Shown piece after piece: positions 8,214 to 64,000 of a stretch of 64,000 nucleotides of DNA. Made by a program: the position numbers and the translations under genes. Below the pieces are notes generated by a model that had not been told where the DNA came from, did not search any database, and worked only from the letters and a program-made list of their open reading frames with translations. Numbering within the stretch: the stretch's first letter is position 1; each line of letters opens with the position of its first letter. The stretch comes from Verrucomicrobiota bacterium (lineage in GTDB: Bacteria > Verrucomicrobiota > Verrucomicrobiia > Limisphaerales > Palsa-1400): NCBI GenBank assembly GCA_049510745.1, contig JBEKYR010000015.1, positions 42,858-106,857 on the forward strand, written 5' to 3'.

Positions 8214-9800
8214 ATGAACAAAAACCTCACGCAGTTGGGCCAGCAACTACTCGGCATCTGGAAACAGCTTGGGCTGAACCAGCGCGTCAGCATCATCATG
8301 GCCACCGCGGTGGTGTGCGCCGGCTTGGGCACGATGGCCTTCTGGTCCAGCCGCCCGGATTTCTCCCTGCTCTACGGCAAACTGGAGGAAGGCGAAGCCT
8401 CCAAGGTCATCGCCGCCCTGGGCGAAACCAAAGTCCCCTATCAAATCCGCGGCGCCGGCTCCATCTACGTTCCCGCCGATAAAGTGTACCAGGTGCGCAT
8501 GCAAATGGCGGGCAAGGGCATTCCGCGCGGGGACGGCGTCGGCTTCGAGATTTTTGACAAGGCCAATTTCGGCATCTCCGATTTCGTGCAGCGGGCCAAT
8601 TACACCCGCGCCGTACAGGGCGAACTGGCCCGCACCATCAGCCAGCTCGACCAGGTCGAAAACGCCCGCGTCATGATTGTCATGCCCGAGAACCGCCTTT
8701 TGGTGGACAGTTCCCGCAAACCCACCGCCTCGGTTTTCGTCCGCGTCAAGGGCATGGGCCAACTGCCGCCGGCGGCGGTCAACTCGATCCGTTTCCTGGT
8801 CGCCAACAGCGTCGAGGGCCTCCAAGTCAACAATGTTTCCGTCGTCGATAACCAGGGCAACGTCCTGTCGGAAAACGAGGAAAGCGACTCCATCGCCGGG
8901 CTGTCCAACAACCAGCTCGCCGCCCGGCGCAATGTCGAGCAATACCTGGCCAAAAAGGCCCAGGGCATGCTGGAGCAGGTTCTCGGTTCCGGCCAGGCGG
9001 TGGTGCGCGTTTCCGCCGAGCTGAATTGGGACACCATTACCCGCACCGAGGAGAAATTCGACCCGGACGGCCAGGTCGTGCGCACCAGCGTCATCAATGA
9101 CGACAACACCGATACCACCACCTCCTCCGGCGGCGGCCCGCCCGGCGTGGCGGCCAACGGGTCGGACACCAATTCCTCCTCCGGCACGCCAGTCAACAAA
9201 AGCCATACCCAGAAGAAAGTCACCAACAACAATTACGAAATCAACAAGATCACCAGCAACGTGGTGCAGGCGGCGGGCGGAATCAAACGCCTCTCCACCG
9301 CCGTTTTCGTGGCCCAGCGCTTCGAGGGCAAGGGCGCCGACCGCAAAGCCGTGCCCCGTTCGGCGGACGAACTGGACAAACTGCGCCACATCGTCCAAGC
9401 CGCCCTCGGCATCCAGGCCAACGGCGACGCGAACCGGACCGATGAAATGACGCTGGAGGAAATGCCGTTCAACGACCAGCCGGTGGCCGAAATGGCCCAG
9501 GAACTGGTCCAACAGGAAAAACGGCAATTCTGGACGGACCTGGCCCAGAAACTGATTTACCCGGCGCTGGCCGCCGGGGTGCTCTTCCTGTTCTGGCGTT
9601 TGTGGCAGAAGACCGCCGAGGATGAAATCCCCATCACTTTGCCGATGGTCCACGGCAACGGTCATGGCCGCTCCAAAAACGGCTCCAATGGCTCCGGCGT
9701 CGTCACGGTGGATGTCCTCAATCAATTGATCCGCGAAAACCCCGCCAACGTCACCCAGGCCGTGCGCAGTTGGCTGGCCCGCGGCAAACCCGAAACCTGA
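8214..9800 (+). CDS. fliF: MS-ring protein FliF
   Basis: N-terminal TM, GFEIFD, RA.QGELARTI, PTASV, LVANSVEGL, second TM, C-terminal ENPANVTQAVRSWL. Confidence 0.96.
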   Translation: MNKNLTQLGQQLLGIWKQLGLNQRVSIIMATAVVCAGLGTMAFWSSRPDFSLLYGKLEEGEASKVIAALGETKVPYQIRGAGSIYVPADKVYQVRMQMAGKGIPRGDGVGFEIFDKANFGISDFVQRANYTRAVQGELARTISQLDQVENARVMIVMPENRLLVDSSRKPTASVFVRVKGMGQLPPAAVNSIRFLVANSVEGLQVNNVSVVDNQGNVLSENEESDSIAGLSNNQLAARRNVEQYLAKKAQGMLEQVLGSGQAVVRVSAELNWDTITRTEEKFDPDGQVVRTSVINDDNTDTTTSSGGGPPGVAANGSDTNSSSGTPVNKSHTQKKVTNNNYEINKITSNVVQAAGGIKRLSTAVFVAQRFEGKGADRKAVPRSADELDKLRHIVQAALGIQANGDANRTDEMTLEEMPFNDQPVAEMAQELVQQEKRQFWTDLAQKLIYPALAAGVLFLFWRLWQKTAEDEIPITLPMVHGNGHGRSKNGSNGSGVVTVDVLNQLIRENPANVTQAVRSWLARGKPET

Positions 9801-9806
9801 TCCTTT

Positions 9807-9893
9807 ATGTTCTCCATTGTTGACAGCGCGCGCCGCCTGGAAGGCAATGGCGAACGGGAATTTCACGGCGCCGCCGGCGCCGCCCTCGCATGA
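9807..9893 (+). pseudogene. fliG: 28-aa remnant resembling the extreme C-terminus of FliG, in the fliG position
   Basis: ATG 6 bp after the fliF stop encodes MFSIVDSARRLEGNGEREFHGAAGAALA*, similar to the FliG terminal I...ARRLE..GE(I) helix. Its stop overlaps the fliH start (ATGA). Confidence 0.65.
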
Positions 9894-10483
9894 ACCCTTG
9901 GTCGGACACGCTCCCCATGCCCAAGCCGCTGCGCGGGGTCCTCCTCCTGAACCCCGCGGACAAAGAAGCCGCGGCCGCGCGGGCGGCCATGGAAGAAGAA
10001 CTGCGCGCCAGTTACCAGCGCGGGCGCGACGACGCGGAACGAGCGATGGGCCAGCAACTCCTCCAGCAGCGGGCCGAGGTCCACGAACTGATGCGCGGCG
10101 TGCTGGAGTCGCTGCGCAATTGCGTCCCGCAGATTCTACACGACAGCGAGAACATGCTCATTGCCCTGGCCCTGTCTGCCGCGCAAAAGCTGGTGGCCGA
10201 CACGCCCATCTCGGCCGCCATGGTGGAAGCGGTCGTGCGCGACGCCCTGGCGCAGGTCGAGGGCACCGCGCAGTTCACCGTGCGTCTGCACCCGGCGGAC
10301 CTGGAATTGCTGCAAAAATCCGCCTCCCCTCTGCTGGCTTCGGGCGACGGGGCCAAGGAATTCCGCTTTCTCTCCTCGCCGGAAGTGACCCGCGGCGGAT
10401 GCCTGGTGCAGACCCACTTCGGCACCGTGGACGCGCGCCGCGAAACAAAATTTGATCTCCTGCAAAGAACCCTGCTCGTCTGA
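9890..10483 (+). CDS. fliH: Flagellar assembly protein FliH
   Basis: SYQRG, LALSAAQKLV, VRLHPADL, GGCLVQTHFGTVDAR. Lies directly before fliI. Confidence 0.9.
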   Translation: MNPWSDTLPMPKPLRGVLLLNPADKEAAAARAAMEEELRASYQRGRDDAERAMGQQLLQQRAEVHELMRGVLESLRNCVPQILHDSENMLIALALSAAQKLVADTPISAAMVEAVVRDALAQVEGTAQFTVRLHPADLELLQKSASPLLASGDGAKEFRFLSSPEVTRGGCLVQTHFGTVDARRETKFDLLQRTLLV

Positions 10484-11853
10484 TGAACCGACACGCCATC
10501 TGCACATCCAACCGCCTGGAAGGCCTGCTGCGCCGCGTGCAGGAAACCGAGGTCATCCGCAATCATGGCCGCGTCGTCCAGTTGATCGGGCTGGTGATCG
10601 AATCGGAAGGACCGCTGGCCGCCGTTGGCGAAATCTGCCGCATCGAATCGGCCGGCCAGGATGGTTCGACGCTGGCCGAGGTGGTTGGTTTTCGCAATAA
10701 TCACGTCCTGCTCATGCCGTTGGGCGAACTTCACGGCATCCATCCCGGCGCCGAGGTCATCGCTCTGGGCACCACCCTGCGCGTTCCGGTGGGTGATTCG
10801 CTCAAAGGGCGCGTTATCGATGGCTTGGGCCGTCCGCTGGACGACTTGGGACCCATCCAGGCCAGCGACGACGTCAGTTTGACCCTGCAACCGCCCCATC
10901 CCCTCAAGCGCCAACGTATTCAACATTGCTTTCGCACCGGGATCAAAGCCATCGACACCTTTGTGCCTTGCGGACGGGGCCAGCGCCTGGGGATTTTCGC
11001 GGGCAGCGGCGTCGGCAAATCGACCCTGCTGGGAATGATCGCCAGCCAGGCCGAGGCCGATGTCAACGTCATCGCCTTGATCGGCGAACGGGGACGTGAA
11101 GTGCGGGAGTTTTTGGAAAAGGATTTGGATGAGAACGGCCGCCGCAAATCCGTCGTCGTGGTGGCCACTTCCAACCAGCCCGCCATTGCCCGCCTCAAGG
11201 GCGCCTTCGTCGCCATGGCGGTGGCCGAATACTTCCGTGACAAGGGACAGAATGTCCTGTTGATGATGGATTCGGTCACCCGCTTTGCCACCGCCCAACG
11301 CGAGATTGGCCTGGCCGTCGGCGAACCTCCCGCCACCCGCGGCTATACGCCGTCCGTTTTCTCCCTGCTGCCCCAATTGCTGGAGCGCGCCGGCACCGGC
11401 CCTTCCGGTTCCATCACCGGCCTTTTCACCGTGCTGGTGGAAGCCGACGACATGAACGACCCGATTGCCGACGCGGTGCGCTCGATCTTGGACGGCCACG
11501 TTGTTCTCACCCGCGAGTTGGCGACCCAGAACCATTATCCGGCCATCGATGTGCTCGAAAGCGTCAGCCGGTTGACCCGCGACCTGACCACAGTCGGGCA
11601 ACAGAAGCTCACGGCGGACGCCCGCGAAACTCTGGCAACCTATCGCAAGAACCAGGATTTGATCAACATCGGCGCCTATCCGGCGGGGACCAATCCGGCC
11701 ATTGATCTGAGCATCCATCTGCACGAGCCGATGAAGAGCTTTCTGCGCCAGCCGATCGACCAGGGTTCGTTGACAGAGCAAAGCTGGTCCCTGCTGGCCC
11801 AAACCATGGCCACGCCCATGCCGGCCAAACCCACCCCCGCTAAACGCGCATGA
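10483..11853 (+). CDS. fliI: Flagellar export ATPase FliI
   Basis: GQRLGIFAGSGVGKST (Walker A), LIGERGREV, LMMDSVTRF (Walker B), GEPP..RGY.PS, LDGH. Confidence 0.97.
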   Translation: MNRHAICTSNRLEGLLRRVQETEVIRNHGRVVQLIGLVIESEGPLAAVGEICRIESAGQDGSTLAEVVGFRNNHVLLMPLGELHGIHPGAEVIALGTTLRVPVGDSLKGRVIDGLGRPLDDLGPIQASDDVSLTLQPPHPLKRQRIQHCFRTGIKAIDTFVPCGRGQRLGIFAGSGVGKSTLLGMIASQAEADVNVIALIGERGREVREFLEKDLDENGRRKSVVVVATSNQPAIARLKGAFVAMAVAEYFRDKGQNVLLMMDSVTRFATAQREIGLAVGEPPATRGYTPSVFSLLPQLLERAGTGPSGSITGLFTVLVEADDMNDPIADAVRSILDGHVVLTRELATQNHYPAIDVLESVSRLTRDLTTVGQQKLTADARETLATYRKNQDLINIGAYPAGTNPAIDLSIHLHEPMKSFLRQPIDQGSLTEQSWSLLAQTMATPMPAKPTPAKRA

Positions 11854-12320
11854 AAGCCTTTCGATTCACCTTGGAGGCGGTTCGAACCGTGCGTCAGCGG
11901 CAGGAAAACGACGCCCTGGAACTCTATGCCCGCGCCTTGCTCGCCCGCCAGCAGGTCCTCGATGCGCTGGAAGCGGTGGACGGGCGCATCAACGACGACT
12001 GGTCGCACATCCGCCAATTGCTGGCCAACGGTTGCAGCGCCGCCCAGGCGGCCCAGGCTCACCGGTTCCACCGGTCCTTGGAAAAAGAGCGCGACGACTG
12101 CGTGGCCGCCCTCGGTCAGGCCGAGCGACGGGTCCAGTCCGCCTCGCAGGCGATGCTCGCCGCCCGCCAGCAGCGCGAGATTGTCGAAACCTATCGGGAA
12201 AAACAACACCTCCGCCATCAGCGACTGGAAGCGCGCGAGGAACAGAAGCTTCTCGACGAGTTCGCCGTCCGCCGCGTGACCGCCATCCACGCCGGCCAAC
12301 CCCAATCTTCACATGACTAA
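11850..12320 (+). CDS. fliJ: Flagellar export protein FliJ
   Basis: MKAFRFTLEAV..VR, a coiled coil, and C-terminal EQKLLDE. Synteny supports the call. Confidence 0.9.
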   Translation: MKAFRFTLEAVRTVRQRQENDALELYARALLARQQVLDALEAVDGRINDDWSHIRQLLANGCSAAQAAQAHRFHRSLEKERDDCVAALGQAERRVQSASQAMLAARQQREIVETYREKQHLRHQRLEAREEQKLLDEFAVRRVTAIHAGQPQSSHD

Positions 12321-12897
12321 ATTACTTGAAAACACCTGGATCAGCGCCCCCGTGGGCGTCGTGGTTTATCTCCTCTGCACGGTTCTCTTCTGGGAAACGC
12401 CCACCGTGCCGCTGTCGGACAGGCTGGGAAACGCCCTCCGTTTCACCGGGCCGGCCTGGAATTTCAAAAATCCCGAAGCCGATCAACTCATCGCCGAGCT
12501 GAAGATCGAGAGGAAATCCGTGGCGCTGCGCGAGCAACAACTCGATGAACTGGCCGCCCGCTTGCAGAGTGAACGCGCCGAACTGGGCCAGGTCACCCAG
12601 TCGGTCCGCCAACTTCAGAGCGATTTCGACAAATCCGTCCTCCGCGTCAAAGAGGAGGAAGTGGCCAACTTGAAAAAACTGGCCAAGGTCTATGGCGACA
12701 TGTCCCCCGAAACCGCCGCCACGGTCTTGTCCGAAATGGATAATGGGTCCATCGTGCGGATTCTCCTCTTTCTCAAAGACAATGAAACGGCCGCCATCCT
12801 CGAGGCGCTGGCCAAGAAAGGACAGGCCGAAGCGCGCCGCACCGCCGAGCTTTCCGAGCAGGTTCGCCTTTCCACCCACAGCACCACAACCAAATGA
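12313..12897 (+). CDS. MotE/YlxF-like (MgtE N-terminal-like) flagellar protein
   Basis: TM plus coiled coil, then LKKLAKVYGDMSPETAA.VL..M...IL..LK...AAIL. Lies between fliJ and fliK. Confidence 0.75.
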   Translation: MTKLLENTWISAPVGVVVYLLCTVLFWETPTVPLSDRLGNALRFTGPAWNFKNPEADQLIAELKIERKSVALREQQLDELAARLQSERAELGQVTQSVRQLQSDFDKSVLRVKEEEVANLKKLAKVYGDMSPETAATVLSEMDNGSIVRILLFLKDNETAAILEALAKKGQAEARRTAELSEQVRLSTHSTTTK

Positions 12898-15652: not shown

Positions 15653-16252
15653 ATGCCGGACAAAACCGAACCCCGCACCGGCGGACGCCTGGAGGCGCCG
15701 GCCGAAGAGCCCACCCCCGAGGCTCCGGCGGCCAAACCGCCGGCTTCGGGCAAAACGTGGCTGCCCCTGCTCATCACCGTGGTCGCCATGCCCATGCTGG
15801 CTTATGCCACCACCAAGTTTGTCCTGGTGCCGCAGATGAAGCGGGCCTTGGCTCAATCGACCGCCGCCCCCGTCGAATCCGCCGCCGCCACAGGCGGAGG
15901 CGAAAGCCACGCCACGGCCAGCGACGGCAAGACGACCATCGACGGCAAGACCAAGGTCACCGTCCCGTTGAGCAAAATCCTCGTCAACGTCGCCGGCACG
16001 ATGGGCACGCGCTACTTGATGACCAGCGTCACCCTGGTGGGAACGGACCCGAATCTGAAGAACGCGATCGATCAAAACAAGGACCAACTCCTGGACCTGG
16101 CCACCGGCACCCTCTGCACCAAAACAATTGCCGACCTGGAAAAGCCCGGCGCGCGCAACGTCATCCGCGCCGAACTGATGACCATTTTCAACAACGCCCT
16201 GGGCGGACCCGTCATCAAGGAAATTTACATCACCGAACTGGCCATTCAATGA
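15653..16252 (+). CDS. fliL: Basal-body-associated protein FliL
   Basis: Single TM, ILVNVAG..GTRYL, C-terminal IKEIYITELAIQ. Confidence 0.88.
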   Translation: MPDKTEPRTGGRLEAPAEEPTPEAPAAKPPASGKTWLPLLITVVAMPMLAYATTKFVLVPQMKRALAQSTAAPVESAAATGGGESHATASDGKTTIDGKTKVTVPLSKILVNVAGTMGTRYLMTSVTLVGTDPNLKNAIDQNKDQLLDLATGTLCTKTIADLEKPGARNVIRAELMTIFNNALGGPVIKEIYITELAIQ

Positions 16253-17193
16253 CTCAGGCGCCCAATCCACCACCCGCCGCCACCCCGCCGGCCTGCGAAA
16301 GCCAGCCCCCGCCCGTGGCGGTTCAGCCTTTGGACCTGCGCGCTTCCTCACTGCTCTCTCCGCGCCAGTTGCGGGCTTTGCGGGCGCATGAGGAGCAGTT
16401 TCTTGACGCGGCCAGCGCGCGGGTGTCGCTGTTTCTGCGCTCGGAATTCCCGCTCAAGCTGGCCTCCATCCAGGTCGTCTCCTACCAAAAGCTGACCGAA
16501 ACCTGGGCGGCGCCGGCCCATTTGACTCTTTTCAAGACCGAGCCGTTGCGCGGCGTTTCAATTCTTGACATCGAGGTGCCCCTGGCCCTGGCCATCGTGG
16601 ACCGCCTCATGGGCGGCCCCGGCAAGGCGGCGGAAACGGCCCGCCAGTTGAGCGAAATCGAAAGGGCGTTGCTCGACCAGATCGTCCAGATTCTCCTGGA
16701 GGAATGGTGCAATAATTGGGCCTCGCTGCGCCCGCTTAAGCCCTCCATTTTGGGCTGCGAATCCAATGGCCGCTTTCTTCAGACCGCGCCGCCCCAGGCC
16801 AGCATGCTGGCTTTTTCCATCGAGGCCTGCTCCGGCGATGGCGCGGGCCGGATGCAACTGGCCTTTCCCTATGCCGCCCTGGAGCCGTTGCTGCGCCAGC
16901 TTTGCCCGGAGGCCGAGCCGGCGGCCCATGCCCCCGCCCCGCTTCCCCAAGCCTCCACTCAATGGAACCGCGGCCTGGACGATGTCTCCCTGCCTGTCAC
17001 CGCGGAATGGCGGGAGATGGAACTTTCCGCGCGGGATATTCTCCACTTGAAGGTCGGCGACGTTCTTCAAGTCGGCCCGCAACTGGCCCGGCAGGTTTCG
17101 CTGCGGCTGGGCGAACTGCCCAAATTCAACGGCCGCCTCGGCACCCTCGGCGGCGCTTGGGCCGTGGAAATCACGCAACCGATCCACCTCTGA
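16249..17193 (+). CDS. fliM: C-ring switch protein FliM (N-terminal CheY-binding motif absent)
   Basis: ATG overlaps the fliL stop. CheC-like middle domain with DRLMGGPG and LSEIE..L, then FPY..LEP and a C-terminal SpoA domain (DILHLKVGDVL). Confidence 0.88.
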   Translation: MTQAPNPPPAATPPACESQPPPVAVQPLDLRASSLLSPRQLRALRAHEEQFLDAASARVSLFLRSEFPLKLASIQVVSYQKLTETWAAPAHLTLFKTEPLRGVSILDIEVPLALAIVDRLMGGPGKAAETARQLSEIERALLDQIVQILLEEWCNNWASLRPLKPSILGCESNGRFLQTAPPQASMLAFSIEACSGDGAGRMQLAFPYAALEPLLRQLCPEAEPAAHAPAPLPQASTQWNRGLDDVSLPVTAEWREMELSARDILHLKVGDVLQVGPQLARQVSLRLGELPKFNGRLGTLGGAWAVEITQPIHL

Positions 17194-17197
17194 TTTT

Positions 17198-17461
17198 ATG
17201 GATGCAAAACCCAGTCCCGCCCTCAATCTCGATCTGCTCCTCGATGTCCGCGTCAAGCTGACCATCGAGCTGGGCTCCTGCCAGATGCCCTTGCGCGAGG
17301 TGCTCCAACTCACGCCCGGCTCGGTCGTCAAGCTCGACCAGGCCGCGCAGTGTCCCGTCAACCTTTACGCCAACCAGAAGCACATCGCTCGCGGTGAAGT
17401 TGTTGTCGTGAACGACTGCTACGGCATCAAAATCACCGAACTTTTTGGAGCCGCCCCGTGA
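17198..17461 (+). CDS. fliN: C-ring protein FliN
   Basis: NLDLLLDVRVKLTIELG, L.PGSVV.L, ARGEVVVVND.YGIKIT. Confidence 0.93.
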   Translation: MDAKPSPALNLDLLLDVRVKLTIELGSCQMPLREVLQLTPGSVVKLDQAAQCPVNLYANQKHIARGEVVVVNDCYGIKITELFGAAP

Positions 17462-34484: not shown

Positions 34485-35228
34485 TCATTTGGATCCTTTC
34501 TTCGTCACACTTTTAGGGATTTGGCGAACGTAAGCGGCGCGTATCGCCGCCAGCAAACAAGATCCCTTCACCTGGAATCTCTCAAATTCTGAAATATTGT
34601 CTTGCTTCAAATGAAGCTGGCCTTCGCCGACATTTCCACGATGTTGTCCGCGCGAATAGTACTTATTCGATTCAACTTCGTTGGAACTCAAAACCCAATG
34701 ACGAATGACATCTCGCCAAACCCCAATCCACACAAAAACGTCGCAGCAGCCGCATTTGACCTGCTGAAAATTCATATCGAACGATTTTCCTGAATCGGAT
34801 GAAAGCGCTTTCACATACAAGGGTTCGTCCGTGTCGAAATCCACGGCGCGCGACGCTTTGACTTCAATCCGAATCTGCCCATCCAGAAGAAAATCGTATT
34901 CCCCGGAATATCCAGGGTCGAGTTTCTTGGAAGGTTTGACAAGATCGGGAACCAATTCCTTCAAATGTCCCTGCGCCCAAGCCTCGCCAAAAGTTCGCGG
35001 ACCACTGATTTCAAAAATATAAAGATATAGGTTTCGGGCGATGTACTCGTCTCGGATTTCGTAGTAGCCATCAAGCGACAGAACTCCCTGGCCGAGCAAA
35101 ATCGAAATCACATATTCAAAACGGTTGAATGGATAAACGGACAAAAGCGTGGGGAGCCGGTCTCTCAGATCCTTTTCGTCTTTCAAATGCGAGAGCAGTT
35201 CGTCGAGTTTCTGTTGCAGTTTTTGCAT
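34485..35228 (-). CDS. Putative type II restriction endonuclease, PD-(D/E)xK fold
   Basis: G..WA..HL...GEYDFLLDGQIRIEVKASR, MNFQQVK..CCDVF. Translationally coupled (TAATG) to the MTase gene. AT-richer than nuo. Confidence 0.75.
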   Translation of the reverse strand: MQKLQQKLDELLSHLKDEKDLRDRLPTLLSVYPFNRFEYVISILLGQGVLSLDGYYEIRDEYIARNLYLYIFEISGPRTFGEAWAQGHLKELVPDLVKPSKKLDPGYSGEYDFLLDGQIRIEVKASRAVDFDTDEPLYVKALSSDSGKSFDMNFQQVKCGCCDVFVWIGVWRDVIRHWVLSSNEVESNKYYSRGQHRGNVGEGQLHLKQDNISEFERFQVKGSCLLAAIRAAYVRQIPKSVTKKGSK

Positions 35229-36229
35229 TACAAAAAGCTTGGCTGTAATTCTGTTTCGATTTGTCCGGCGGCTTTTTCCGGTGTTTCCAAAAGTTCCGGC
35301 AATGATATCTCTTCCTCAAAAGGATGGCCGTTTTGCCAGCCGAGTCGTCGCGTTTTTCGGAAACGTTCCAGCCGGCGGATGGTAATCTCGCAGAAGATCG
35401 GGTCCAAATCCGCGGTGAAACAGCGCCGCCCGTTTATTTCAGCCGCCAGCAGCGTGGTGCCCGAGTGAGCGAAAAAGTCAATCACCAGGCTGTTCCTGGG
35501 CGAACTGGCTTTGATAATGCGCTCAACGCACTTGATCGGTTTTTGAGCATAACAGCCCGACACGTTTTCCTCCATTCGGTAAAAAACTTGCTGAATGTCC
35601 ACCCACACGTTGCCCGCGCGAATGTTGTCTGATTTGCTTCGCTCAAAATTCTCCGTTGTTTTGCCGCCGACCTCCTTGTAATAACCGCGCAAAATCTTCG
35701 GAATGTCGGTATATTCGGCCTCAATGTTAAAATCCGGCTCCCCCTTGATGTAGTAAAGAAGCTCCTGGCGCACCGCCATCCAGTTCTTTTGTGTTCCGAA
35801 GCCGCGTTGATTTCGCATCGTGATGAAGCTGCGCGGGCGCAGTTCAGTCTGCCGCATCATCAACATGAAATCCGGCAATGGCTGAAATCCATTGCGCTGA
35901 TCCGCCCCCAGCCAAACGTAAAATGAGCTGTCCGGTTGGAGAACCACAATTGTATTGTTGACCCATTGTCTGCACCAGCGAACATACTCTCCGATCTCGC
36001 GTTCTTCAAAAGCGACCAGGTTGTAAGGCGGATCGTGGATGGCCAGATCGGCCCGCTCACCGTCTGTTAATTCCAACATTGCACTGGTATTTGCCGCATC
36101 CAGGCAGCCAACCTTGTGCCGGCCTTGAGCGTCAACCCAAATCTCACCGGGCTTCAAGCGGCAAAAGGGCAAAACCTTCTGCCGAAGCTCTTCGCAATTG
36201 TCCAGTCGCGGCAAGGGGTTATTCTTCAT
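35228..36229 (-). CDS. Site-specific N6-adenine/N4-cytosine DNA methyltransferase (beta class)
   Basis: Catalytic DPPY precedes QKP...ERII..SS and the SAM-binding DFFAHSGTT motif. Confidence 0.92.
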   Translation of the reverse strand: MKNNPLPRLDNCEELRQKVLPFCRLKPGEIWVDAQGRHKVGCLDAANTSAMLELTDGERADLAIHDPPYNLVAFEEREIGEYVRWCRQWVNNTIVVLQPDSSFYVWLGADQRNGFQPLPDFMLMMRQTELRPRSFITMRNQRGFGTQKNWMAVRQELLYYIKGEPDFNIEAEYTDIPKILRGYYKEVGGKTTENFERSKSDNIRAGNVWVDIQQVFYRMEENVSGCYAQKPIKCVERIIKASSPRNSLVIDFFAHSGTTLLAAEINGRRCFTADLDPIFCEITIRRLERFRKTRRLGWQNGHPFEEEISLPELLETPEKAAGQIETELQPSFL

Positions 36230-42866: not shown

Positions 42867-43700
42867 ATGAGGCGCCTTTTAGCAACTGCAAGCGTGGAAA
42901 AGAGGTTCTTTTCCCAAGAAAATAGGTTGACGCTTGGCGGCTCCAAAAAACTCAAGCCGCAATTGCAAGCGGCACGCAAATGGCACCGCTTTGAGACGTG
43001 TGGAGACTCGCTCAACCGCCGGTGGATTTCCGGGGAAGGTTTGTGCAACCCGATTGCAGCGGTTCGGCTTTCCATCTTTGGCGGTTCTGGATGCTCTTGT
43101 TCCAAAACGGCTGCGAAATTCTCCCCGCCCGCACGGACCTGGGCCCCCTCCGGTTTATTTAAGCAAGGATGGGGACAAGCCCGCGCTGGATTCCGCAAAA
43201 CAAAAGGGGCTGCCGCGTTCTCATTGATGGAAGTCATGATCGCCTTGGGACTATTGGGGATCTTTGTTGCCGCTTGCCTGGCGGCAATCGTCACTAACCA
43301 GGTCTGCGACAGAAAAGCAAAGGAAGAGGCGATAGCGATGGACTTCCTGACCAAATATGTCGAGAACATCAAGGCGCTGCCCTTCGCATCGGTCGCCCCG
43401 GGATTGCCCATCAACTCAATCTATAATGGCGCTGCTGGTGCGCCCCTCATCACCATTCCGGTGAACAGTTCCTGGGTTTCGCTCAACACGATCGCCTTCC
43501 AAACTTTTTATCCCGATCTGTTGTGGTTGAGCAATCGCAATCCAATGATGCAGGTGGCTTTGACGCGAAATAGCGTTGCTGGAACACTGCATGACATAGA
43601 GATCAACGTCAAAATTGATTGGGACGCTCCACTGGCCAAGGGTGGACGGCTGGAAGTTCAGGTTGATTTGTTGCGGACGGCAGATGTGCCGACGTTATGA
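42867..43700 (+). CDS. Type IV minor pilin / pseudopilin (PilV-like); true start probably downstream
   Basis: Prepilin-like site AAA|FSLMEVMIALGLLGIFVAACL near 43218. The upstream ~110 aa look non-conserved. Confidence 0.75.
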   Translation: MRRLLATASVEKRFFSQENRLTLGGSKKLKPQLQAARKWHRFETCGDSLNRRWISGEGLCNPIAAVRLSIFGGSGCSCSKTAAKFSPPARTWAPSGLFKQGWGQARAGFRKTKGAAAFSLMEVMIALGLLGIFVAACLAAIVTNQVCDRKAKEEAIAMDFLTKYVENIKALPFASVAPGLPINSIYNGAAGAPLITIPVNSSWVSLNTIAFQTFYPDLLWLSNRNPMMQVALTRNSVAGTLHDIEINVKIDWDAPLAKGGRLEVQVDLLRTADVPTL

Positions 43701-44311
43701 GAACAGCCTCAACCAACCCCGCTCCTCGAATTTTCCAGCGAGCCTTCACTCTGGCGGAACTGATGGTTGCCGCCGGTGTCGGCATGGGTCTGGCCGGAAC
43801 TGCGGTTCTGCTCCTGCTCCAATCGGCAACGGAGCAACGGCGTGGATTTGCCGACACGACCGTTGAAGAAGAAGCTCACACTTTGCAGGCTAACATTACC
43901 GCCTGCCTGCGCAGCATGAGCGCCACCCAAGGGCTTACGCCCAACTATTCGAGCGGCCTCTACGATGGCAATGGACATCTGTTGGGATACCAATCGGTCT
44001 TTATATTTAACCCCACCAATGGCGCCTACATTACCGGGAACATTAGTTATAACTCATCTTCCGGACAAGTTATCTACACCCCCAACGTTTTGGCTCCCTC
44101 GACACAGATGCTGTGGATGACCAACAGCGCGTCCGCCGTGTTGACCGAGCTTTACTTCTCCACTTCCTTTAATCTGGATGGCTCGCAGAATAATTCACTC
44201 GTGAATGTGGTCTTTCAAATGAATGACAATGGATTTTCGCAGGAGAACCCGACAAATAATCCGGCCAGCATATTTCGCAACTTTTCGGTTCAGATGCGAA
44301 ACGATAATTAA
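43697..44311 (+). CDS. Type IV minor pilin (PilW-like)
   Basis: QRA|FTLAELMVAAGVGMGLAG. ATGA overlap with the previous gene. Confidence 0.8.
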   Translation: MRTASTNPAPRIFQRAFTLAELMVAAGVGMGLAGTAVLLLLQSATEQRRGFADTTVEEEAHTLQANITACLRSMSATQGLTPNYSSGLYDGNGHLLGYQSVFIFNPTNGAYITGNISYNSSSGQVIYTPNVLAPSTQMLWMTNSASAVLTELYFSTSFNLDGSQNNSLVNVVFQMNDNGFSQENPTNNPASIFRNFSVQMRNDN

Positions 44312-44324
44312 ATTCTAAGCCGTC

Positions 44325-46028
44325 GTGCATACTCCATCCATAAACCACCGTCCAGAGCAAGGCTCCACCCTCCTGCAAGTCGTCGTTGCCGGTGCCATCA
44401 TTTGCATGACCGCTGCCTCCACCCTCATAATGAGCGCCAATTCCATTAATAGCGCGTGCGGGCGCGTGGATTGGGACAAGGCATTCTTCAACGCTGAAAA
44501 TGCCGTGGTCTGGGCGGCCCAAACAGCCTTCGATACATCGCTGGCCCCCGGTTCAAGCAATTACTACTCGACCGCTCTCGGAACCCTGCCGCTTGGCTCC
44601 ATCATTTCGCCTACCAATGGAGATGTCACATTCAAGGGCGCGTGGGTGCAAATTGTGCAACCCGGCGTTTCAGGGAGCAATGTTATTGTCATCACTGCGT
44701 CTGCCCGCGTCAACAACGCAATTCGCACCATTCAGGCCCAAATTACGATCCGGCCCGCCAGCCAGGTATTCGACTATGAGTATTTTCTGAACAATTGGGG
44801 TTGGTGGTGGGGAAACACCATCACGGGCAATGGCGCCCAACGCGCCAACTGGGATTTTGATTTCAGGGACGGTCCAACCGTCAACGGCTCCATTTATGCC
44901 GCTGACCAGGTTGATGAGAATGAAATACCCATCCAAGCCTACGCGACGCCGCCTTTTGCCGGGCTGGCCGGAGCTGATGAAACCAATCTCGTCCACCAGG
45001 GCGCTCCACGAGTGGCCATGCCGAACCTGCTGAATTTTAGCAACTACATTGCCACTGCCACGGCCAATACAAGCAGCAACGGCCTTTGGATCGGCACAAG
45101 GCAACTTGTTGCCGGCGCGTTGACAAACCATAGCATCCCCAATCCCGGCGGCAACGACGGCAACCTTACCCCCCAAACCGGGCTGTATCTAGCGGGCACT
45201 CCCAGCTCGCCGATCATCGTCAAAGGCACGGTGGTAATACCTGGTGACCTTGTCATTCAAGGAACAGTCACCGGACAGGGCACTCTGTATGTGGGAGGAA
45301 ACCTTTACATAGCCAATAACATCACCTATGCCCATGGCCCGGACTTCAGCACGCCCCCGGAAACCAAAGAACCCTCCGTCCGCGACGCTTGGGTTGCGCA
45401 AAACATGACCAATGACTTGGTCGCTTACGCCGTCAGAGGTTCTATTTTGGCGGGTGACGTAACTGACCCCGATTGGATCAACTATTGTTACAATTATCCT
45501 GGCAGCGGCCTGGCTAATGTGGGTGACGAATCGCATCTGGGTGCGGACGGGATCGCCAACACCCCCGACGATAACATCCCGTTCCTTCATGCCGACGGCT
45601 CGATGAGCACCTGGTATGATGCCGACGGAGATGGCGTCATGGAGGCCAACTACAATTACAACACGGACATAAACATGACCCCCGCCCGGGCAACGAATAT
45701 TGTAGGATATCCCACGGATGTCAATGGCAATCCCCTCGCCTATAATCAGGTGGCGACCGACAACATGGGCACGCTGGAGGGAATTTTTTACACGGATCAC
45801 GCTGCCGCGATGCGCCTGGCCCAAAGCACCGCCGTCTTCCACGGTGTAATTGTTTCGCGCAATGAACAGATTGTATTTCAGAACTATCTCACTCTGAATT
45901 ATGATTCGCGTGTCAACAGCCGCTATAATAACAACCCGAATCAGTTCATCAACCTGGGCTTGCCTTGGGGCAAGCCGCTCCAGGTGAATAGTTTTGCCGA
46001 GCTGGCTCCAAATGGAACGGGGCTATGA
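44325..46028 (+). CDS. PilX-like pilin with a large C-terminal (adhesin-like) domain
   Basis: EQG|STLLQVVVAGAII (no E5, as in PilX), KAFFNAE.A, VIVITASA....RTIQ. Beta-rich C-terminus with acidic loops GADGIANTPDD and DADGDG. Confidence 0.75.
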   Translation: MHTPSINHRPEQGSTLLQVVVAGAIICMTAASTLIMSANSINSACGRVDWDKAFFNAENAVVWAAQTAFDTSLAPGSSNYYSTALGTLPLGSIISPTNGDVTFKGAWVQIVQPGVSGSNVIVITASARVNNAIRTIQAQITIRPASQVFDYEYFLNNWGWWWGNTITGNGAQRANWDFDFRDGPTVNGSIYAADQVDENEIPIQAYATPPFAGLAGADETNLVHQGAPRVAMPNLLNFSNYIATATANTSSNGLWIGTRQLVAGALTNHSIPNPGGNDGNLTPQTGLYLAGTPSSPIIVKGTVVIPGDLVIQGTVTGQGTLYVGGNLYIANNITYAHGPDFSTPPETKEPSVRDAWVAQNMTNDLVAYAVRGSILAGDVTDPDWINYCYNYPGSGLANVGDESHLGADGIANTPDDNIPFLHADGSMSTWYDADGDGVMEANYNYNTDINMTPARATNIVGYPTDVNGNPLAYNQVATDNMGTLEGIFYTDHAAAMRLAQSTAVFHGVIVSRNEQIVFQNYLTLNYDSRVNSRYNNNPNQFINLGLPWGKPLQVNSFAELAPNGTGL

Positions 46029-46852
46029 CCCGCGCTATGCGCCATCGCGTCTTCAGACACAGCCTGATGGGGATTGCGGCCATCCTGGTCACGTTGGCCA
46101 TGGCAATTCGCGCCGGCGCGGCCATATCGAACGGGCCAAATAATACTAACGCCGTCGTCGCGGAACAGCAGCGCCTTTTGCAGTTCTTTCGGGCGGAGCA
46201 GTCCTATCAAGAACAATTGAGGGTGGGGCGGGAGCGTTATAATCAGAAGCAAATTGACCGTGCCAAAGTCATTGCGGCCATGTCATCGGAACTTCAGGCC
46301 AGACAACAGACAGTCGTGCTTCAGCCCGAGGCAGCGCCGGACGGCAATACAGACGAACCGGCCGGGCGGTTTCGGCCTTCGCTGGCTGTGGCCGTGCTGG
46401 CAGTTGGTTTTATCGGCTTTGGATATTACTGGAACCGTCTGCGCGCGCAGGAAACGTTCGGCCAGGAGCGCAAGCCCATCGTCGTCCCGGTGGCGCCAGT
46501 TGTCGCGAGGTCAATGGCGGACGAAATCTTCTTTTGCAAAGGCGAAGGCGCGAACGGTCGTGGCCGTTATACGAAAGAGGGGGTTGTGGTTCTGAAAGGT
46601 TCCATCGGTCGCAAGAAGAATGCGCCATCCATTGTGGCGAAATCGACCGAACCATTGCGGGCAAAGCTGCTCGACTCAGGCGTGATGCGCGAGGAAGGCG
46701 ATACGGTCATTTTCGAGAAAGATCACTTGTTTCCGACGCCGAGCATGGCAGCGGTTGCGCTCTTGGGCAGGACGGTCAACGGGTGGCTTGAATGGAAAAC
46801 CGAGGATGGCATAACGCTGGATACGGTGCAACGCCTGGAGGCGAGAGAGTAA
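46025..46852 (+). CDS. Membrane protein with a C-terminal DUF4357 domain
   Basis: Signal-like N-terminus, coiled coil, TM (LAVAVLAVGFIGFGYYW), then GVVVLKGS...FEKDHLFPTPSMAAVALLGRTVNGWLEWK. Confidence 0.75.
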   Translation: MTRAMRHRVFRHSLMGIAAILVTLAMAIRAGAAISNGPNNTNAVVAEQQRLLQFFRAEQSYQEQLRVGRERYNQKQIDRAKVIAAMSSELQARQQTVVLQPEAAPDGNTDEPAGRFRPSLAVAVLAVGFIGFGYYWNRLRAQETFGQERKPIVVPVAPVVARSMADEIFFCKGEGANGRGRYTKEGVVVLKGSIGRKKNAPSIVAKSTEPLRAKLLDSGVMREEGDTVIFEKDHLFPTPSMAAVALLGRTVNGWLEWKTEDGITLDTVQRLEARE

Positions 46853-62780: not shown

Positions 62781-64000
62781 TAATGCCTTTCGGAAAATCA
62801 TGGCGGAAGGATTGTGATGGTGATAGGGCCCTGCGATGATGTGTTTTTGAGCAGGCGTGGCCAACTGCTAACGGGTTGACGGACCGCCCGCGGGCAGGAG
62901 CGGGCGCGGCGTTTAGAAGTCAGGCAGCGGCGCGCCTGCGCGTAAAACCGTTCCGTCAACTGTCGCTTTTGCCAATCCTCCAACAGGTCATCTCCCAAGG
63001 CGAACACCAGCCAGAGCGGACGCATCAATTCGAGCAATTTGATGAAGCTCACCCGTAAGACGGGCACCTTCCCGGCTGCGGCGCGATCCCGCTCCTGTGC
63101 CAGCAGCGCCGCCGCCAGCATCAGAGCGGCGATTTCCTGTGCGGCGGTATCCATGGTGTGGCTCGGGAGGACCTCGCTTTTGCGCAGGCAGTGCTTCAAT
63201 TGACGGTAGAATAATTCGTGCTCCCACCGTTTGGTGTAGAGTTCCACCAACTCTGGCGCGGGAGCCTCTTTGGGGTCCAGCAGGGTCGTCCAGAGCCGCA
63301 GTTCGAGGCTGCGAAAGCCTTTGCGCCCGACGCGGACCCGGATCTCCCGCAGGGTGAGCCAGTGCCGTATCACCTGCGGTCTGCCCTTTTGGCGTACGGG
63401 CACACGCACCAGGCGACTGCCGTCCTTGAGGCGCCGCACCAACTGCACCTGGATGTTCTGGCGGGCGCGAATCCAAAAATGACTGCCCACTCGTTGACAG
63501 GCCTGGAGAGCTTGCCAGGCGAAGGCCGCACACCCATACAGGCGGTCGGCCAGCAGCAGAGCCTTCTTGGGCAAGCGCGCCAACAAGCTCATCGCCAGTT
63601 CCCATTCCGACTGCCCTTTGTGCCCGATGGCCGCCGCCACGGGGTTGTGCAACCCCACTTCCAGCAGCACCCCGGTGACGATCTTGGCAAAGGCCGCGCG
63701 ACCGCGGCGCGTTTTGGCCTTGGTTTGCGTGGCTTTGACCGCCGGCGTGTTGGTCACACTGAATTGCGTGCCGTCGGTGGCCATCAGACGCCATCCGCGC
63801 CAGAAGGCTTCCGGGTGGCGCCGCCGCTGCACCAGCGGACGCAAGGCCCACTGCATCAACTGGGTAAAGACCTGCCACGGCAAACGCGCCCGCCGATCCG
63901 ACCACGAACTGTCGGCCAAGGGGGCCTGATACAACTGGAAGAAGTGTTCGGCCAATGTGCCGGCGCCGCTCATGAAGTGAAAGATCAGGGCGGGCAGCAA
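62781..64000 (-). mobile_element. IS4-family insertion sequence, partial (continues beyond the window)
   Basis: DDE transposase. The terminus TAATGCC at 62781, 17 bp beyond the stop, matches IS4-type ends. Confidence 0.85.
62798..64000 (-). CDS. IS4-family DDE transposase, 5'-partial
   Basis: ATDGT, LADRLY and YTKRWEHELFYRQLK (Y-2-R-3-E-6-K signature). Confidence 0.9.
   Translation of the reverse strand: MLPALIFHFMSGAGTLAEHFFQLYQAPLADSSWSDRRARLPWQVFTQLMQWALRPLVQRRRHPEAFWRGWRLMATDGTQFSVTNTPAVKATQTKAKTRRGRAAFAKIVTGVLLEVGLHNPVAAAIGHKGQSEWELAMSLLARLPKKALLLADRLYGCAAFAWQALQACQRVGSHFWIRARQNIQVQLVRRLKDGSRLVRVPVRQKGRPQVIRHWLTLREIRVRVGRKGFRSLELRLWTTLLDPKEAPAPELVELYTKRWEHELFYRQLKHCLRKSEVLPSHTMDTAAQEIAALMLAAALLAQERDRAAAGKVPVLRVSFIKLLELMRPLWLVFALGDDLLEDWQKRQLTERFYAQARRCLTSKRRARSCPRAVRQPVSSWPRLLKNTSSQGPITITILPP

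Follow-up and report, generated by a model that had tools for sequence, protein, structure and literature searches.

The window, by which we mean the whole 64,000-nucleotide stretch of DNA that was analysed, comes from a metagenome-assembled genome (MAG; G000 below) of 5.6 Mb in 85 contigs, 94% complete with 1% contamination. Pfam scans and start positions delineate one long flagellar operon of about 17 kb on the + strand, which opens with flgB, flgC, fliE, fliF, fliH, fliI and fliJ, continues through an MgtE_N-like gene, fliK, flgD, a short flgE-like gene and fliL, and ends with fliM, fliN, fliO, fliP, fliQ, fliR, flhB, flhA and flhF. The features around the fliF-fliH junction, together with the downstream genes referred to in the text, are:

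8214..9800, + strand: fliF, encoding the MS-ring protein of 528 residues (Pfam YscJ_FliF 4.6e-60, YscJ_FliF_C 6.7e-33), with a TGA stop at 9798-9800
9801..9806, + strand: spacer of 6 nt (TCCTTT) from the fliF stop to the ATG of the relic (fliF-fliG spacers in the same genus: 6 and 5 nt)
9807..9893, + strand: fliG relic ORF of 28 codons, from ATG at 9807 to TGA, identified by nhmmer, hmmsearch and sequence comparison
9890..9893, + strand: ATGA, in which the TGA of the relic overlaps the ATG of fliH
9890..10483, + strand: fliH, 197 residues (Pfam FliH 2e-16), its N-terminus kept in relatives
10483..11853, + strand: fliI, encoding the export ATPase (Pfam), whose start overlaps the fliH stop by 1 nt
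12313-12897: MgtE_N-like gene of 194 residues, a weak match, between fliJ and fliK
16249..17193, + strand: operon fliM, 314 residues, with an ATGA overlap with the fliL stop and a GGPG motif
17198..17461, + strand: fliN, 87 residues (Pfam FliMN_C 9.6e-24; genome search)

Only 89 bp (9801-9889) separate fliF from fliH. An earlier sequence-only reading of this DNA had reported this distance and a mini-ORF whose stop overlaps the fliH ATG; the coordinates hold, and 9807-9893 is the only ORF that fits. The fliH start at 9890 is corroborated by tblastn, in which the alignments of most relatives set in at residue 1. As that reading had also stated, the neighbouring binding elements are retained: the C-terminal FliG-binding tail of FliF (...VVTVDVLNQLIRENPANVTQAVRSWL...) is intact and is near-invariant across 18 relatives, whichever FliG the genome has, and the operon FliM keeps its GGxG motif, which reads GGPG. 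The MgtE_N fold, to which the gene between fliJ and fliK is weakly matched, is shared with FliG domains.

Outside the flagellar operon, three other parts of the window stand out. Two genes on the − strand (34485-36229) interrupt the nuo (complex I) operon between its nuoF-like (51-kDa) and nuoE-like (24-kDa) subunit genes; with third-position G+C of 0.51 and 0.62 against about 0.8 in their neighbours, they comprise a 247-residue ORF that has no Pfam match and an N6_N4 DNA methylase, and look like a restriction-modification-type cassette that was inserted there. Four co-oriented ORFs on the + strand (42867-46852; third-position G+C 0.60-0.67), three of them with no Pfam match and the last with DUF4357, may form an acquired island. 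On the − strand, a DDE transposase ORF (DDE_Tnp_1; 62798-64000) runs past the end of the window.

An ORF of 28 codons would by itself be trivial in DNA of 61% G+C; its resemblance to fliG is a different matter. The 3' ends of fliG (the last 110 nt upstream of the fliH ATG in 12 genomes of the same family) were built into a DNA profile, which, searched with nhmmer over all 5.6 Mb, places window positions 9816-9885 as the top match genome-wide (E 1.5e-7); the next match is the real fliG2 gene described below (E 0.0063), and all others have E values of at least 0.11. When the ends of 22 intact operon FliGs (their last 45 residues) were made into a protein profile and run with hmmsearch against all 129,577 six-frame ORFs of at least 20 residues, the relic came second (E 0.0018), after FliG2 (1.2e-8) and ahead of a third match with an E value of 1. 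The full-length fliG DNA profile also matches the gap (E 1.4e-4). Aligned by eye to the C-termini of intact operon FliGs (G017 and G020), the peptide shares 15 of 25 residues, and by profile it aligns only in the last helix region, positions 319-340 of 348. The proposal that the peptide corresponds to the last FliG helix is thus borne out, both by the alignment to the FliG C-termini of relatives that it called for and by the genome-wide profile matches. Judged on these matches, the 28-codon ORF is a true relic of the operon fliG.

The extent of the deletion can be read from both of its ends. Homology to fliG is detectable from 9811 or 9816 to 9885, so that the last 26-27 codons are homologous to the fliG 3' end, and side-by-side comparison matches the DNA from 9816 to the fliH ATG with the last ~75 nt of the fliG genes of relatives. 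At the other end, the ATG lies 6 nt after the fliF stop, where fliG starts in the same-genus genomes G001 and G002 (6 and 5 nt). This start-codon position and the 3'-end likeness together indicate an in-frame fusion of the old start codon with the last ~27 codons; compared with the fliG genes of relatives (332-346 codons), about 0.9 kb of DNA has been lost. In keeping with the suggestion that nearly all of fliG was removed without breaking the frame, the frame is open from the old start place of fliG to the ATGA at fliH. The relic also has the type of end found in its genus, in which fliG ends at the fliH start (ATGA or TGATG), compared with 17 nt inside fliH in other genera. Among the 29 loci of relatives, fliG lies between fliF and fliH in 24 and is absent from four; the remaining locus is truncated by the end of its contig.

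The 28-residue product matches no Pfam family and, on its domain content (none of FliG_N PF14842, FliG_M PF14841 or FliG_C PF01706), is a descendant of fliG rather than a FliG protein. At the DNA level the relic is 56-71% identical to the intact fliG ends of other genera, within the range of intact genes compared between genera (60-74%), which is compatible with recent loss. Near-invariant FliG residues have nevertheless changed non-conservatively (LESEGEIE reads LEGNGERE, by eye), indicating that the peptide is not under FliG-type constraint. We also observed that the relic ORF is in the fliF frame, with a TGA and 6 nt between them, so that read-through of the stop would append it to FliF; this frame relation is not kept in G002, which has a 5-nt spacer, and is therefore probably due to chance.

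A search of the genome for FliG, which the sequence-only reading had recommended, returned exactly one FliG_C match, a complete FliG of 349 residues (FliG2) on contig C13 (49513-50562). Of the three alternatives offered there, namely a recent loss, supply of FliG in trans or use of another adaptor, this finding favours supply in trans; a further fliG may lie in the missing part of the 94%-complete MAG. FliG2 exceeds the Pfam cut-offs for all three domains (FliG_C 125.9, FliG_N 94.6 and FliG_M 91.4 bits), aligns end to end with solved FliGs, with SKRAAANLLEEISFMGPLR aligned to SKRAAALLKDELEYMGPVR of Thermotoga maritima FliG (4fhr_B), and keeps the charges of the torque helix (SKRAA...EE...GPLR). 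No intact FliG2 or operon FliG has lost these charged residues; we take the stator-facing residues to be those equivalent to R281, D288, D289 and R297 of E. coli, their role being assumed from work on E. coli and T. maritima. In the middle domain, the motif that presumably binds FliM (EHPQR-type) reads EQVQ or EQLQ in FliG2 proteins (EQPQ in G035), mostly EQPQ in the operon FliGs of the order and EHPQ in T. maritima; this difference may weigh against FliG2 as the rotor protein.

Complex prediction for the FliF tail with the N domain of FliG2 gave weak support, scoring 0.42 against 0.00 for the best of three controls, with runs agreeing in at least 64% of contacts and a partner pLDDT of at least 62. 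Of 157 solved complexes, 116 attain the mark used, as do 2 of 215 mismatched pairs; at scores of 0.60 or less, only 18 of the 157 do so, along with both of the mismatches that passed. Like complexes have been solved (5tdy, 5wuj), and the prediction may reflect this likeness only.

FliG2 shares 60-82% identity with non-operon FliGs of relatives and only 38-57% with operon FliGs (FliF identity within the family is 70-81%). In quick trees the non-operon FliGs form one clade, with SH-aLRT support of 100 (11 of 35 rows), of 99 when four FliGs of other phyla serve as root (12 of 46 rows) and of 100 when a long-branch row is left out. By these identities and its tree placement, FliG2 is a paralogue and not a moved operon gene, and the position of its clade inside the FliG radiation of the order marks it as an old duplicate of this group. 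Within the clade, G000 and G001 (genus g1) group with G016, G041 and G042 (genus g10 type), and G002 (g1) and G021 (g10) fall elsewhere; a tree that does not follow genera suggests transfer or hidden paralogy of the cassette.

The surroundings of fliG2 are those of a chemotaxis cluster, in the order cheR, cheD, an HDOD gene, cheB, cheX, a response regulator gene, fliG2, a second response regulator gene and fliM2, with both regulators being double-receiver proteins. fliM2 adjoins fliG2 in 11 of 12 other loci, and the contig of the twelfth ends there. All 12 FliM2 proteins carry an N-terminal motif of the SQSE(I/V)E.LL type (PQSEVEHLL in G035), which we take to be the CheY-binding peptide of FliM; the FliM2 of G000 (on C13; L002 10401-11543) begins with VSQSEIEQLL, and its operon FliM has no such motif. 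Among operon FliMs the CheY-binding-type motif is found by pattern in 4 of 29, with two more coming close, and it is absent from those of genera g1, g3, g5, g7, g9 and g10; in the family, the majority of operon FliMs are without it, also where the genome has no FliM2. The fliG2 of G011 (L037 6283-7440) and the fliM2 of G016 (C1:519296-520208) are each split over two frames, through either frameshifts or assembly errors. In the literature searched in full text, we came across neither a che-linked fliG2-fliM2 pair nor the loss of fliG in Verrucomicrobiota.

Since G000 is a MAG in 85 contigs, 6% short of complete and with 1% contamination, it has to be considered that a collapsed assembly hides a full fliG at the junction, or that contig C13 derives from another organism. 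Mapping across the junction, again recommended beforehand, was carried out with metagenome contigs. Logan contigs from five of the seven DNA runs examined, these five being peat metagenomes, each run from a different study and independently assembled, bridge fliF, the relic and fliH with no differences (X5, 9386-10075; X6, 9760-9915; X8, 9720-9952; X10, 9560-10063; X11, 9736-10071). In the contigs of the seven DNA runs no alternative joint between fliF and fliH was seen, a result that rare variants may escape. At the junction, the JGI metagenome contig L065 has exactly the sequence of the window, and the window stretch is present in many peat and wetland metagenome runs. As for C13, the FliG2 of G000 is sister to that of the same-genus G001 at 78% identity, in step with the 80% of FliF, and the contig therefore fits the same lineage. 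We regard an assembly or binning artefact as extremely improbable.

The relic can be placed within a wider pattern among relatives. FliG_C matches occur in at least 193 of 401 genomes of the order. Of the 41 genomes of Limisphaerales (Verrucomicrobiota) that were searched in detail for this comparison, 32 have FliF together with FliG_C and nine have no FliF match. All 21 genomes lacking FliG2 have FliG_C adjoining fliF, and none of them has a degraded operon fliG; of the 11 genomes that carry FliG2, seven have a degraded operon fliG or none, and four, all of genus g7, have an intact one.

The degraded operon copies differ in how much is left. In G001 a full-length frame persists with good N and M domains (Pfam 89 and 76 bits), and its C domain is degenerate, with a partial FliG_C match of 26.9 bits, 33-38% identity compared with 74-87% among intact genes, and the torque-helix segment missing; metagenome contig L066 carries a G001-like copy. 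G002 retains only the N and M domains (219 residues), and metagenome contig L072 carries a truncation with its breakpoint at profile nt 753, compared with 640 in G002. The operon copies of G001 and G002 have well-kept N and M domains (Pfam 76-91 bits, 62-75% identity), and a residual role for the truncated operon FliG in these species is possible on that account. G000 holds the 28-codon relic, and no operon fliG is found in G011, G016 and G021 (genus g10), in G035, or in the g10-like MAGs G041 and G042. The events are few and the genomes are kin; they amount to at least three lineages (g1, g10 and g21), and the g1 group by itself accounts for no fewer than three separate deletions, with breakpoints at codon 2 in G000, profile nt 640 in G002 and nt 753 in L072. 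In G035 (98% complete), the single FliM-family match is the FliM2 beside FliG2, and fliF, fliH and fliI are still present; the replacement in this genome seems to extend to both switch genes of the operon. From these observations we infer a place for FliG2, together with FliM2, in the flagellar motor, by which the operon copy became dispensable.

A different interpretation of the same pattern would be that the flagellum itself is decaying, with fliG loss as the first step towards lost motility and with FliG2 and FliM2 serving another machine or a signalling role. The location of FliG2 in a chemotaxis cluster, rather than among flagellar structural genes, would suit this interpretation, as would its EHPQ-type motif, which is unlike that of operon FliGs, and the nine of 41 related genomes with no FliF match suggest that loss of flagella may occur in the group. 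However, the other flagellar genes that were checked in G000 are intact, namely the flgB-flhF operon, the flagellins (two genes, plus one weaker Flagellin_N match), MotB (one MotB_plug match) and FlgI (one match). Moreover, in genomes whose operon has no fliG, all three of genus g10 as well as G041 and G042, FliF is 69-73% and FliI 85-87% identical to that of the window, which implies long purifying selection after the loss, and the switch proteins of G035 are FliG2 and FliM2 only. To our knowledge, none of the flagellar systems studied so far assembles without FliG. We consider a decaying flagellum very unlikely.

Why the remnant should still be an open frame is a separate question, and the layout of the operon bears on it. 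Overlaps between stop and start codons (ATGA, TGATG) couple translation in bacterial operons, as in the trp genes of E. coli. In the window, ATGA overlaps also join fliI to fliJ, fliL to fliM, fliN to fliO and fliO to fliP, and from flgB to flhF all stop-to-start distances are 15 nt or less, as the starts were called, with that of fliQ being uncertain. No GGAG is present within 25 nt of 19 of the 21 operon starts (by eye). With almost no Shine-Dalgarno (SD) sites and such short distances, the operon looks like one ribosome relay. Were the relic not there, the start of fliH, alone in the operon, would lie far (89 nt) from any stop upstream of it; with it, relic and fliH are joined by the stop-start overlap expected of a coupled pair (ATGA at 9890-9893).

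The same geometry recurs in the relatives, in that the degraded operons all hold a stop within 10 nt of the fliH ATG, in one of four forms:

ATGA at fliH: G000, G002, L072 and G021
TGATG at fliH: G001 and L066
TGA-T-ATG at fliH: G035
fliF stop 9-10 nt before the fliH ATG: G016, G011, G041 and G042

Operons of the G016 type show that a junction of 10 nt does equally well and that no relic is required. What ends at fliH in G021 and G035 is in each case a 24-codon ORF in which neither the protein nor the DNA profile detects any likeness to fliG; these ORFs were considered as further fliG relics and are not counted as such, only as frames ending at fliH. The geometry fits every case examined, from which we infer that the relic may preserve translational coupling to fliH.

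The main reading, to which we assign a probability of about 0.55, is that the ORF is an in-frame fliG remnant, that the rotor job is likely done by FliG2, and that the remnant is likely kept open by handing ribosomes from the fliF stop to the fliH start. On this reading, FliG2, with FliM2 and/or the operon FliM plus FliN, would build the C-ring on the unchanged FliF tail, and the operon fliG would have decayed once its redundancy with FliG2 existed. Only deletions that left a stop codon at the fliH start would have survived; the operon has almost no SD sites, and its genes are chained by stop-start distances of 15 nt or less. Translation of the relic would then pass ribosomes from the fliF stop to the fliH start, and the relic peptide itself would have no role.

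The same relic and the same paralogue replacement can also be read with the mini-ORF as a neutral leftover, in frame by chance, and with fliH translated independently. Any one deletion has a prior of about 1 in 3 of ending in frame, and there are only a few cases, some of them related; intact fliG ends resemble one another about as closely as the relic resembles them, as expected if little time has passed, and the non-conservative changes of the relic at near-invariant FliG residues show a peptide free of FliG-type constraint. The region 9780-9940 has an unremarkable RNA fold (z 0.51; 128 of 200 shuffles fold as well) with no sign of a masking hairpin, the junction has no SD site, and the contigs of the one RNA run (X20) lie outside it, at 9334-9523 and 11530-11570 only. 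What tells against a neutral leftover is that a stop lies within 10 nt of the fliH ATG in every degraded operon, including at least three separate deletions of the g1 group, and that no other stop-start gap in this almost SD-less operon exceeds 15 nt. Among 15 metagenome loci and the Logan contigs of five runs, none carries a diverged version of this deletion. A neutral leftover is in our judgement a serious contender, at somewhat below even odds.

It might also be asked whether the peptide itself is functional, as a free last FliG helix acting on the stator, on FliH or on the C-ring. The RRLE..GE core of that helix is kept and, if coupling works, the peptide would be made together with FliF and FliH. 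Conserved helix positions have drifted, though (I to R, SE to GN), other lineages with no operon fliG have unrelated mini-ORFs or none, and the product has no Pfam domain; a functional peptide is highly improbable.

Returning to the main reading, it can be extended to a more general and more tentative proposal, which we find possible but doubtful. In SD-less relay operons, selection would tolerate only deletions that end in a junction of at most 15 nt or in an open ‘ghost’ frame, and a che-linked fliG2-fliM2 pair would repeatedly have displaced the operon switch genes across Limisphaerales; the relic would be one such ghost, open from its old start to the start of the next gene. If this were true, the displacement of a motif-less operon FliM by FliM2 with its CheY motif would rewire motor control. 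Neither repeated displacement of the operon fliG nor decay that invariably ends at the fliH start is described in the literature we searched. Seen more soberly, the case is one of a gene decaying in the ordinary way once a paralogue has replaced it, though as an example it is clean and recurrent.

Its interest lies in a core flagellar gene, fliG, being replaceable by a distant paralogue that brings its own fliM, with this group showing the replacement in stages. The genomes provide a natural series for testing whether translational coupling, and not the protein, limits how genes are lost, whether FliG need not be made beside FliF, and what a second switch pair with a CheY motif does to motor control in Verrucomicrobiota, a group whose motility has been little studied. 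There is also a consequence for annotation, since a pipeline that takes ‘fliG in the flagellar operon’ as its measure of motility would get such genomes wrong.

Several known systems share part of this arrangement. Coupled operons of the kind mentioned above are matched by the TGA of the relic sharing an ATGA with fliH; they differ in that the upstream partner here is a 28-codon remnant rather than a gene with its own product, and the dependence of fliH on it is putative. As in pseudogene decay, a redundant gene is being removed piecemeal, through the stages of a degenerate C domain, C-domain deletion and complete loss, but each stage here is an open frame that ends at the start of the next gene, which is unexpected in free decay.

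Among flagellar systems, the FliF-FliG fusions of Salmonella, of which a full-frame one is reported to assemble rings (PMC6079021), are comparable in that the fliF/fliG junction tolerates in-frame deletions, and the relic is even in the fliF frame; the Salmonella fusions keep working FliG domains, whereas here none is left and a stop lies between the frames. Shewanella putrefaciens likewise has second copies of switch proteins, FliM2 and FliG2, which are reported to belong to a secondary flagellar system (PMC8203827); there the second flagellar gene set is complete, and here only fliG2-fliM2 is duplicated. Also close in arrangement is Borrelia burgdorferi, which has one flagellar system and two FliG paralogues, only one of them in the fliF operon, and in which, according to a review (PMC7225975), FliG2 is essential for flagellar synthesis and knockout of FliG1 has no effect on synthesis. 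Borrelia keeps both copies in separate roles; here the operon copy decays and the distant che-linked copy stays, in several lineages, and FliG2, unlike that of Borrelia, is paired with its own FliM2.
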